Part shown: piece after piece, positions 9,083 to 12,022 of the stretch
Layout: every line of letters begins with the position of its first letter
How positions within the stretch are numbered: the stretch's first letter is position 1
Source: an uncultured bacterium
GTDB taxonomy: Bacteria; Hydrothermota; UBA3073; NMUJ01
Length of the DNA: 16,612 nt
Assembly: GCA_965612795.1 (NCBI GenBank)
Contig: CBFDTI010000028.1
Location: 1-16,612 of the forward strand
Direction: 5' to 3'
The notes under the pieces: generated by a model
Databases searched by the model: none
What the model saw: only the letters and a program-made list of their open reading frames with translations
Told to the model about the DNA's origin: nothing
Position numbers and translations under genes: made by a program

Positions 9083-12022
9083 ATGGCAAATATATTGCGT
9101 AAAATACTACCTACAGCTAACGAACGTACACTACGTAAACTATGGCCTATCGTTGAAGAGGTTAACAGAGAATTTGAGAAACTGAAATCCCTAACCGACG
9201 ACCAACTACGCAAAAAGACTGAAGAGTTCCGTACCCGCTACAAAGAAGGTGAATCACTCGACGACCTTATGGTCGAGGCGTATGCGGTTGTAAAGGAAGC
9301 GGCACGTCGGCTTGTGGGCAAGAAATGGCAAGTAACAGGTCAGATGTGGGAATGGAACATGGTACACTATGATGTACAGATATTGGGTGCTATTGTGCTA
9401 CATCAGGGTAAAATAGCGGAGATGGCAACCGGTGAGGGTAAGACGCTTGTCGCTACCATGCCGTTATATTTGAATGCACTTACTGGACGCAATGTACATC
9501 TGGTTACGGTTAACGACTATCTTGCACGTCGTGATGCCCAGTGGATGGGTGGACTCTATGAATTTCTTGGTGTAACCGTTGGCTGTATACAGAGTGGTAT
9601 GTCTCACGAGGAGCGCAAAAAGCAGTACGAATGTGATATCACATATGGTACGAACAATGAGTTTGGATTCGATTATCTACGTGATAATATGGTTTTACGT
9701 GCAGAAGATCGTGTACAACGTGGCCATTATTATGCAATAATAGACGAGATCGATAGCATACTTATAGATGAGGCACGTACTCCACTTATAATTTCGGGGC
9801 CCGTCGAACGTAGCCTTAACCGCGAATACGCACGCCTTAAACCGTTAGTCGAACGTCTATTCCGTAAACAAACGATATTGGTTAACTCAATAATTGCAGA
9901 AGCTGAACAGTTACTCAAAGAAGGTAAATACCGTGAAGCAGGTATCAAACTACTGCAGGCACAGCGTGGGGCACCCAAAAATAAGCGGTTGATGAAACTG
10001 AAGCAAGAACCCGGGATACAGCGGTTGATCGATGAAACTGAAGGTATCTTCTTGCGTGAGAAGAAGATGCACGAACTCGATGCTGACCTGTATTATTATA
10101 TCGACGAACGTGCCAATGTTGTATCGCTCACAGATAAAGGTAGATACGAACTTATGCCACAGGATCCGGACTACTTCACGGTACCAGATCTGGGCGAAAT
10201 GCTATATGCGATACAGAAAGATCACAGTTTATCACCACGTGAACGCCTGGTCAAGAAAGAGGCAGCTGAGCGTGAATTCGCCGAAAAGAGTGCACGTGTA
10301 CATGCACTTACACAATTATTACGTGCGTATGCATTGTTTGAGCGTGACGTCGAATATGTCGTACAGGATGGTAAAGTTATAATCGTGGATGAATTTACAG
10401 GTAGGTTGATGCCAGGCCGTAGATATTCAGACGGTCTACACCAAGCGATCGAAGCCAAGGAAGGGGTACGAATTCAGGAAGAGACACAGACACTTGCTAC
10501 AATTACATTACAGAACTACTTCAGGATGTACGAAAAGCTTGCTGGTATGACAGGTACCGCTGTTGATGAAGCAGCTGAATTCTGGGAACTCTACAAGCTG
10601 GAGGTTGTGGTTATACCCACTAATAAACCCGTACGTAGGGTAGTATTTCCCGACGTTGTTTACAAAACACGTCGTGAGAAGTACGAAGCCGTCATCCGCG
10701 AGATTGAAGAGCTGTATCGCCGAGGTAGACCCGTACTCGTAGGTACCACATCCGTGGAAGCTTCAGAAATACTCTCACGTATGCTCAAACGCAAAGGTAT
10801 ACCACATCAGGTGTTAAATGCTAAGCACCACGAACGTGAAGCTAATATCATTGCACAAGCTGGGCAGCGCGGTAAGGTGACAATCGCCACCAACATGGCA
10901 GGTCGTGGTACCGACATAAAGTTGGGCCCCGGTGTGGTTAAATGTAAGGAATGTTGCCTATTCTCGGATAATAACAACTGTAACGTCGATATTAACCAGT
11001 GTTATCGTGACCCACCTTGTGGTTTACATATCATAGGGACAGAGCGACACGAAGCACGCCGTATCGATCGACAGCTCGCCGGTAGGTGTGCACGTCAGGG
11101 AGACCCCGGGTCTGTGCGGTTTTATTTATCATTGGAAGATGACCTGATGCGATTGTTTGGTGCCGACCGCATAGCAGGGCTTATAGATAGGTTTGGGCCA
11201 CCCGATGGTAAGCCTATCGAAAGCAAACTCGTAACCAAAGCTATAGAATCGGCTCAGAAGAGGGTCGAACGTATGCATTTTGAGATGCGCAAAAGGTTAC
11301 TCGAATACGATAATGTTATGAACAAACAACGTGAGGTCATCTACGGTAAGCGTAACGAAATACTCGATAGGGAAGACGTCACGAACATGGTGAAAGAGAG
11401 CATAAGGAATACGATTGCAGAAATAGTTGACAAACATGTAGCGCTTGGTGAGGCATTCTCACCACAAGATCTACGTATGGAGTTACAAACCATTGTGTTA
11501 ACCGACCTACCTATAGATTGGGATTCGCTTAAATCGAAAAAGCCCGAAGAGATCGAAGAGATTGTCTTTGACGCTGTTATGTCAGAATATCGTAAGCGTG
11601 AGGAGATTATAGGTCCAGATACCATGCGGCAGCTCGAACGTCAGATCATGTTATGGACTATCGATCGTCTCTGGCGTGAGCACCTCTATGAGCTTGACGC
11701 ATTACGTGAAGGTATAGGGCTACGTAGTTACGGTGAACGCGATCCGCTGGTCGAGTACAAGCGTGAAGCGTTTCAGATGTTCCAGGAATTGCTATCGAAC
11801 ATAGACCGTACTATTACACGTAATCTGTTTGGGTTAAGGATTGCACCTCAGGTATTGCGTCAGACGAGAGAACACGAACCTAAGGAGAGACCACAGAAGA
11901 AGGAACCCACCGCTGTGAAAGCTCAAAAGGGATTTGCAACAGCTGAAGCAGAACAGCCATCCACACAACAACCGCTACGACCGGTGGTCAAAAAGAAGAA
12001 AAAGAGACGCAAACGAAGGTAG
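9083..12022 (+). CDS. secA: Preprotein translocase ATPase SecA
   Basis: [12 protein letters not shown] (Walker A), [85 protein letters not shown]. Confidence 0.99.
   Translation: [979 protein letters not shown]

Follow-up and report, generated by a model that had tools for sequence, protein, structure and literature searches.

The SecA protein encoded in the 16,612-nucleotide stretch of DNA analyzed here (the window) is confirmed to carry a six-cysteine insert at the VAR position of nucleotide-binding domain NBD2. The location is a known one; the module that occupies it, for which no description was found, probably holds a metal ion, as judged from the arrangement of its cysteines.

The open reading frame translates to a 979-residue protein having the SecA domains in order, namely SecA_DEAD, SecA_PP_bind (preprotein cross-linking), P-loop_SecA and SecA_SW (wing/scaffold), with Pfam E values of 3.6e-127, 4.6e-29, 3.9e-76 and 7.8e-65. 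SecA chains in the PDB were matched at E 5e-234, and Foldseek with the full-length AF2 model returned SecA for all top matches and otherwise distant helicases only. It is the single SecA of the window's genome (one SecA_DEAD match in G000). The features of the gene are collected in Table 1. The N-terminal anchor of the insert (T603..I612), which we take to be helicase motif V, is invariant or almost so in an alignment of 80 sequences, and the C-terminal anchor is presumably motif VI; the KLGPGVVK linker is common to module-free SecAs, for example that of T. maritima.

Table 1. The secA gene of the window and the parts of its product that bear on the insert (positions are those of the window)
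Feature	Position	Strand	Basis
secA (979 codons and stop)	9083..12022	+	ORF list, translation, Pfam, PDB SecA matches
NBD2 (Pfam P-loop_SecA, aa 516-708)	10628..11206	+	Pfam
N-terminal anchor of insert, 10 residues (aa 603-612)	10889..10918	+	translation, alignment
KLGPGVVK linker, leading into module (aa 613-620)	10919..10942	+	translation
Six-Cys module (aa 621-646)	10943..11020	+	translation, alignment, Cys counts, tree
C-terminal anchor of insert, 31 residues (aa 647-677)	11021..11113	+	translation, alignment
Poly-basic C-terminal tail, 10 residues (aa 970-979)	11990..12019	+	translation, Pfam, alignment

Translation reproduced exactly the insert, with the spacing C-x2-CC-x7-C-x6-C-x5-C, that a sequence-only reading of this DNA had claimed: 26 residues, with cysteines C621, C624, C625, C633, C640 and C646, exactly between flanking stretches of 14 and 10 residues. 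Few other cysteines had been claimed as well, and the whole protein indeed has nine, the six of the insert together with C168, C184 and C669. Assignment to the VAR position of NBD2 was borne out by HMMER alignment to E. coli SecA (2fsf and 6s0k), in which the insert stands opposite VAR and downstream of GTDIVLGG, the alignment across the insert itself being gapped and of low confidence. T. maritima SecA has module-free sequence at the same place (24-residue stretch compared); the loop is a three- to ten-residue turn in B. subtilis and T. maritima, and in E. coli it is the helical VAR.

Two trivial origins of the insert were ruled out. An assembly artefact was rejected because the same peptide, residue for residue, is encoded in another genome of the genus (G070), with two synonymous differences over 78 nucleotides, and chance clustering was rejected on the probability of at least six cysteines in 26 residues (P = 2e-10, from the protein's own background cysteine frequency) together with conservation and purifying selection. 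The purifying selection is apparent in the codon differences between the window and G070, 141 synonymous and 19 non-synonymous over secA, and 2 and 0 in the insert alone. Metagenomic proteins P0002 and P0003 differ from the window insert at four non-cysteine positions and at none of the six cysteines.

The sequence-only reading had made its proposal depend on conservation of the cysteines in relatives, and this was found: all 80 of the aligned full-length homologues have C640 and C646, and the residues between them vary freely. The number of cysteines is quantised. Among 172 unique inserts from targeted searches, which over-represent cysteine-bearing forms because they were gathered by similarity to a cysteine-bearing query or profile, 73 have four cysteines and 63 have eight; six-cysteine forms like the window's are a minority of 18, and the remainder have five (8), nine (4), seven (1) or one to two (5). 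The insert ends on a cysteine in 171 of the 172 and on C-x5-C in 159; the fourth cysteine (Cd) occurs only alongside the two middle cysteines (56 of 56), and 48 inserts have exactly the outer four. The module can be described as having two basic states, either a single Cys4 site, made of an N-terminal C-x2/3-C knuckle and a C-terminal C-x5-C knuckle running straight into the GL of the strand that follows, or two nested Cys4 sites in the order Ca-x2-Cb-Cc-x2-Cd ... Ce-x2-Cf ... Cg-x5-Ch. In the window protein, two close pairs that are conserved as four are seen in C621-x2-C624 and C640-x5-C646. Assignment of the cysteine ligands is not fixed, because 18 unique four-cysteine forms lack the first cysteine (Ca being G, S or A) and have a middle one instead. 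Knuckle-like C-x2-C-G signatures were found in Gemmatimonadota and Latescibacterota forms. The C-terminal C-x5-C spacing differs from that of the classical C-x2-C knuckle, which counts against a zinc-knuckle reading.

The module is spread widely among bacteria. In a sample of 201 genomes of one phylum, that of the window, and the top matches of three protein-collection searches, named carriers were WOR-3, KSB1, Calditrichia, Latescibacterota, Edwardsbacteria, Desulfobacterota, Gemmatimonadota and Planctomycetota. Within the window organism's phylum, 148 of the 201 sampled genomes match the module profile; family f27 has two cysteines only at the one locus examined (L042) and other families have a plain 10-residue linker, and SecA as such can therefore function without the module. 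In Planctomycetota the same eight cysteine positions extend over 76 residues, with eight cysteines in 92, nine in 22 and ten in 2 of 116 unique inserts, and CC-x2-C and the terminal C-x5-C are retained in all 116. A genome contig scan with regional alignment, a rough background sample only, gave mostly module-free SecAs among the 600 matches listed and also found Gemmatimonadota forms. A profile search of a 50%-identity protein library gave 39 matches, which is not a measure of abundance, SecAs likely collapsing into few clusters at that identity.

When the insert columns were left out of the SecA tree, the window fell in a clade of ten rows (support 100), six of them eight-cysteine and four six-cysteine forms, and the six-cysteine forms lie in three subclades, each adjoining eight-cysteine forms. 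Six cysteines thus look like a derived form of the eight-cysteine module, not the family's defining state, and the window's form looks like one full Cys4 site with a two-cysteine remnant of the second. However, C625 and C633 are kept across several independent six-cysteine lineages, which a pure remnant reading does not explain.

In the full-length AF2 model, mean confidence is moderate for the 10-residue blocks of aa 611-650 (72, 63, 70 and 82), and DSSP assigns to the insert a single short helix, 637-642; for the isolated 48-residue module, AF2 reached pLDDT 49.5 and pTM 0.24 from an alignment of 28 rows, values too low to support a fold search. With residues 612-650, the ESM Atlas returned short SecA P-loop clusters only (scores <=0.87). 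Seven module variants searched at E up to 10 matched P-loop_SecA in Pfam, plus weakly DUF7825 (E 0.29) for one variant, and matched no zinc-finger family and no Fer4, Radical_SAM or other Fe-S family. The Zn2Cys6 (Gal4 type) spacing, C-x2-C-x6-C-x5-12-C-x2-C-x6-8-C, is absent from the window module by regular expression, and despite this negative result the six cysteines might still share two metals. The sequence-only reading had known of no description of the insert; the literature search likewise found none, nor was a Pfam model or a solved structure of the module found.

It had further been proposed that the insert cysteines would be anti-correlated with the C-terminal SEC-C motif, and this was ruled out. 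Of the 120 homologues listed, 116 have SEC-C (PF02810) together with the module, and of the remaining four, two are partial sequences; among the aligned full-length sequences, 78 of 80 have the motif. It is lost only in the window's own lineage, where PF02810 has no match in the window SecA or anywhere in its genome and the poly-basic tail occupies the place at which most relatives bear the motif; SecB, the known SEC-C partner, was also not found in that genome. The SEC-C spacing, C-x-C-x8-C-[CH], was not found in the module by regular expression.

We consider it probable on balance that the module is a lid over the nucleotide cleft, stapled by a metal that is most likely zinc, with a metal site predicted from the sequence; metal binding, the identity of the metal and a lid or regulatory function are what we infer. 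The 26 residues would form a compact cysteine-stapled mini-domain in the NBD2 loop, ahead of the block containing RGR..RQGD. The window protein would retain the whole outer site, with C621, C624, C640 and C646 as ligands of a single structural metal ion, for which Zn(II) is the most likely identity, and its inner site would be reduced to two ligands, C625 and C633. The bound ion would fix the shape of an otherwise unstructured excursion above the NBD1/NBD2 nucleotide cleft, and the module may do what VAR reportedly does in E. coli, tuning ATPase activity and ADP release, a VAR-like modulation that is putative. Clustering of the counts at four and eight is expected of one or two four-ligand metal sites, and to this extent the earlier proposal of a Zn or Fe-S module stands; its Fe-S part is not supported, as set out below.

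Were the thiolate-metal site or sites labile, oxidation or metal shortage would unfold the lid, alter the SecA ATPase and couple export to redox or metal status. Such a regulatory switch, the stronger claim of the sequence-only reading, appears unlikely, though several observations are consistent with it: the module lies between two blocks lining the nucleotide cleft, C625 and C633 persist in several six-cysteine lineages, a regulatory effect of VAR on activity is reported for E. coli (PMC6620043), and the C-terminal metal site of SecA reportedly binds iron and is perturbed by azide (10.1101/613315), which gives metal-dependent SecA behaviour a precedent. On the other side, a pattern of four or eight ligands is equally expected from inert structural sites, some families of the same phylum are without the module, and secA has no linked gene for redox or metal homeostasis in the window. 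In a bolder form of the proposal, a metal-thiolate domain of one or two sites, hitherto undescribed, would act as a working sensor in the SecAs of eight or more phylum-level lineages; metal loss or oxidation would free the lid and change ADP release, and export would follow zinc, iron or redox state. The C625/C633 pair of six-cysteine forms would still take part, for example in a binuclear cluster with six thiolates or as half of a site to which another SecA protomer contributes the rest. The chances of this bolder form are likewise small. Iron instead of zinc, whether in an Fe(Cys)4 centre of the rubredoxin type or in an Fe-S cluster, is quite unlikely. Two-knuckle four-cysteine sites can hold Fe, and many module carriers are probably anaerobes, a point in favor of iron. 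The C-terminal MBD of SecA is also reported to prefer iron in vivo (10.1101/613315). An Fe-S cluster, which the sequence-only reading had entertained, nevertheless found no support, the 4Fe-4S ferredoxin-type and radical-SAM-type spacings C-x2-C-x2-C-x3-C and C-x3-C-x2-C being absent from the window module by regular expression and the seven variants having no Fe-S match in the Pfam search described above. Moreover, the module occurs in Gemmatimonadota and Planctomycetota, which include aerobes, and in these a cluster lying exposed on an essential motor would be a liability.

A docking surface for a partner, such as the ribosome, a chaperone, the tail of SecA itself or another SecA protomer, with the extra cysteine pair perhaps completing an inter-chain site, would suit the VAR position as a surface excursion that tolerates inserts from 10 to about 140 residues, and the relatives P0136, P0147 and P0153 add whole extra domains ahead of the last knuckle. 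However, the non-cysteine surface residues of the module are poorly conserved in the alignment of homologues, and a conserved interface is therefore disfavoured; the window has no gene for a partner linked to secA, and docking is regarded as very improbable. Very doubtful, too, would be metal-free staples, in which two to four disulfides rigidify the loop. Even cysteine numbers do dominate, and the six-cysteine form could make three disulfides, but disulfides predict even numbers generally (2, 4, 6 and 8), whereas four and eight are preferred and six is rare. In addition, C-x2-C pairs are typical metal knuckles, SecA is cytoplasmic, and stable disulfides are unusual in the cytoplasm.

SecA is among the best-studied bacterial motors, yet the species for which its structure has been solved all have a plain loop or helical VAR at the insert position. 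If it binds metal, the conserved module next to the nucleotide cleft would give SecA a second metal site. Because plain-linker, four-, six- and eight-cysteine forms coexist among close relatives, the module also provides a natural experiment on VAR tuning of the ATPase cycle, and it deserves annotation, no Pfam family covering it at present.

Among known systems, the conserved SecA inserts of 50 aa and larger reported in Thermotogales and other thermophiles (Khadka et al. 2019, PMC7023208) are likewise lineage-specific, but they are described as larger and thermophile-linked, and that description, as far as it goes, does not mention a cysteine module. SEC-C is similarly a small cysteine-based metal site in SecA, and most module-bearing SecAs have both, but it has another spacing and lies at the extreme C-terminus, whereas the module is in NBD2. 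The VAR subdomain of E. coli SecA, reportedly the subject of Das et al. in 2012 (J Bacteriol 194:2205), is said to span about aa 519-547. It shares with the module the insertion point after GTDI in NBD2, and each is present in some SecAs and absent from others; a cysteine-free helical segment resembling E. coli 519-547 was not found in the window protein. A role for VAR in controlling ATPase activity and ADP release has been proposed (PMC6620043). Whereas VAR is cysteine-free and helical, the module has four to eight conserved cysteines and almost no predicted regular structure, and sequence similarity between the two does not extend beyond the anchors. A further comparison is with the adenylate kinase LID, in which Gram-positive bacteria and E. 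coli contrast with respect to a structural Zn(Cys)4. The LID is reported to have either a cysteine quartet or H/S/D/T replacements, which covary (PMC4545158). Although adenylate kinase is an unrelated protein with a different spacing, its LID is also a small lid by the nucleotide site of a P-loop NTPase, with metal-stapled and metal-free forms across taxa, and it offers a design analogy, rather than a homology, for the SecA module.

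The SecA encoded in the window has the full set of four SecA Pfam domains, and a PDB search matched it to solved SecA structures at E 5e-234. Translation bore out the placing of the Cys-rich insert at aa 621-646 and its flanking blocks, which we take to be the DEAD-like motor's helicase motifs V and VI. As the sequence-only reading had it, other cysteines are few: six of the protein's nine lie within these 26 residues (probability 2e-10 given the protein's own background Cys frequency). The assignment to the VAR position of NBD2 was likewise upheld by HMMER alignments, in which the insert lies opposite the E. 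coli SecA segment starting after GTDIVLGG; T. maritima SecA has ELG alone at this place. Elsewhere in the protein, a 13-residue NBD1 insertion relative to E. coli SecA (aa 79-91, window ~9317-9355, ahead of NMVHYDVQ) is conserved in the 80-sequence consensus as GKxWxVxGxExxWDM. A helical stretch between NBD1 and the preprotein-binding domain (aa ~245-326, window ~9815-10060; helices 246-279, 283-296, 301-307 and 312-326 in the AF2 model) explains why the SecA_DEAD match covers 496 residues versus a 290-position profile.

Coordinates of secA, its insert and tail, and the neighbouring genes
Feature	Position (nt)	Strand	Remarks
ATP-dependent DNA ligase	1370-2863	-	DNA_ligase_A_N/M/C
Radical-SAM gene, MiaB-like	2838-4076	-	UPF0004+Radical_SAM
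XerC/D-type tyrosine recombinase gene	4088-4954	-	
Radical-SAM gene	5387-6895	-	B12-binding+Radical_SAM+DUF4070
Predicted permease, ArsP_1-type	7357-8397	-	
115-aa ORF	8599-8946	-	no Pfam match
secA	9083-12022	+	largest ORF; 979 residues
Cys-rich insert	10943-11020	+	aa 621-646, from translation
Poly-basic SecA tail	11990-12019	+	aa 970-979, in place of SEC-C; from translation
84-aa ORF	12078-12332		no family
LysM protein	12329-12748		
PhoH-like ATPase, YbeY, two CNNM/CBS (CorC-type) genes	12755-16248	+	in a row

Immediately upstream of secA, on the opposite strand, are the permease and 115-aa ORF; farther off, the recombinase gene separates the two radical-SAM genes, and the ATP-dependent ligase sits in a small, 1.4-Mb bacterial genome. 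Downstream, the 84-aa ORF and LysM gene precede the PhoH-like ATPase/YbeY/CNNM-CBS row.

Of the 8000 candidates scored in a homologue search seeded with residues 606-660, 1559 passed E <= 0.001; counts and names from this search refer to the best 120 of the 1559. A simple pattern located the insert in 115 of 121 sequences (those 120 and the query), each with at least four Cys, and three of the six missed show 4-6 Cys in the 80-sequence alignment. Conservation of the cysteines in relatives, on which the sequence-only reading depended, was confirmed by that alignment of full-length sequences, where C640 and C646 are invariant and the residues between the insert cysteines vary freely. Source-named carriers among the matches listed are candidate division WOR-3, KSB1, Calditrichia, Latescibacterota, Edwardsbacteria and Desulfobacterota, and in a profile scan of genome contigs a four-Cys form of 46-47 residues (C-x2-C-G ... 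C-x5-C) turned up in at least three Gemmatimonadota. Longer forms were recovered from a 50%-identity protein library by A3, a profile built from the module, and assigned by follow-up search to SecA of Planctomycetota, Phycisphaerae and Planctomycetaceae. The matches listed included 116 unique Planctomycetota-type inserts with eight (92), nine (22) or ten (2) cysteines; 114 have a length of 76 residues, and CC-x2-C and the terminal C-x5-C are kept in all 116. In a background sample from the listed contig-scan matches, 75 of 80 loci were readable, having a short Cys-free linker (64), a long Cys-free VAR (5), a four-Cys module (3) or a single Cys (3). The window's insert is thus part of a large family. 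In three other SecAs (P0136, P0147, P0153) the VAR position holds a 133-140-residue, alpha/beta-looking extra domain with a four-Cys knuckle, ECAINT...C...C..EGVPC, after it; two cut sequences (L036 in genome G179, L037 in G129) end in the same KKCIEEGVPC knuckle.

Targeted searches (proteins P0001-P0160, loci L001-L049) gave 172 unique inserts, with four (73), eight (63), six (18), five (8), nine (4), seven (1) or one to two (5) cysteines. The eight-Cys form is spaced Ca-x2-Cb-Cc-x2-Cd-x4-Ce-x2-Cf-x7-Cg-x5-Ch. Exactly Ca, Cb, Cg and Ch are present in 48 inserts, Cd is accompanied by two middle cysteines wherever it occurs (56/56), and 18 four-Cys inserts lacking Ca have one of Cb/Cc, one middle Cys, Cg and Ch. 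These counts and co-occurrences are what one or two four-ligand sites would be expected to give, putatively an outer one formed by Ca, Cb, Cg and Ch, with Cc, Cd, Ce and Cf making up an inner one. The window's form, common to 12 unique inserts, combines the four outer cysteines with Cc (C625) and a single middle Cys (C633).

A FastTree tree computed from the 80 sequences after removal of the insert columns puts the window's SecA and the metagenomic protein P0003 inside a 10-row clade (support 100) comprising six 8-Cys forms and four 6-Cys forms, the latter in three subclades, each beside 8-Cys forms; the rows bordering the clade outside are mostly 8-Cys. Repeated decay of the inner site, from eight to six, appears the most parsimonious reading, and we infer rather than observe it because the root is midpoint only and the supports are local. 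Simple decay does not account for the retention, each time, of Cc and one middle Cys. An identical insert, with two synonymous changes in 78 nt, is encoded by a congeneric genome (G070, ~94% DNA identity over the region); the compared part of secA has 141 synonymous versus 19 non-synonymous codon differences. In P0003 and another metagenomic protein, P0002, the insert departs from the window's at four non-Cys positions, and all six Cys are unchanged. Judged by these comparisons, the six-Cys insert is real and under selection.

Within the window's phylum, the module profile matched 148 of 201 sampled genomes and 121 of the 153 that are at least 90% complete (E <= 0.001), a match not being equivalent to a full Cys site: the one locus read in family f27 (L042) has two Cys and ends YPR. 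The loci read, the 30 best matches and hand-picked weaker ones, are not a random sample. Inserts at two of them (L005, L016) are identical to those of NCBI-named WOR-3 proteins P0004 and P0045, on which ground we equate the phylum with WOR-3. Among profile-negative families, f20, f26 and f29 have a 10-residue linker, KLGEGVKELG; the insert of f30 is Cys-free and 59 residues long, and that of f13 has 110-116 residues, three of them Cys. Variants of 52-61 residues in f10 and f21 (L033-L035, L045, L046) place a charged, helix-like K/E/R-rich stretch between the N-terminal C-x2-C and C-terminal C-x5-C. In one complete phylum genome a further SecA-like stretch (L044, G200:C1:738700-739250), which may be a second SecA copy, opens an 8-Cys-type module and then runs into masked bases (X).

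The proposed anti-correlation with SEC-C failed: PF02810 is also present in 116 of the best 120 of 1559 homologues, and two of the four without it are partial sequences. The window's genome (99.5% complete) has one SecA and gave no SEC-C or SecB match; with its poly-basic tail and no SEC-C, this lineage is unusual in the opposite direction. Alternative, highly positively charged SecA tails may preserve ribosome interaction (PMC6620043).

The full-length AF2 model, built with the 80-row alignment, has mean pLDDT 82 and pTM 0.76, with 10-residue block means of 72, 63, 70 and 82 across aa 611-650; helix 637-642 is the module's sole regular element. Foldseek with this model returned SecA structures (6itc best by TM). 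The isolated module folded poorly (pLDDT 49.5), and it was absent from every solved chain checked. The sequence-only reading knew of no description, and indeed no Cys-rich or metal-binding module at the VAR position was found in full-text literature searches; Das et al. 2012, reportedly a survey of VAR, might mention one. We regard the module as a VAR subdomain of a new type within SecA.

The module is proposed to be a metal-stapled lid at the VAR position, the metal most likely being zinc in a Zn(Cys)4 staple. The staple would fix the shape of this excursion next to the nucleotide cleft and would thereby tune ATPase activity and ADP release, as reported for VAR. Rival readings would make the module a redox or metal switch, an iron site, a set of disulfides or a docking surface. 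The SecA C-terminal metal site is reported to prefer iron in vivo (10.1101/613315). The Fe-S module suggested earlier gained no support, there being neither ferredoxin nor radical-SAM spacing in the module and no Fe-S Pfam match; SEC-C and Gal4-type spacings were also absent. Searched against Pfam at E up to 10, none of seven module variants hit a zinc-finger or Fe-S family; they matched only P-loop_SecA and, weakly and once, DUF7825. For the putative metal-stapled lid, the adenylate kinase LID, which has a Cys quartet or H/S/D/T replacements (PMC4545158), is a design precedent.
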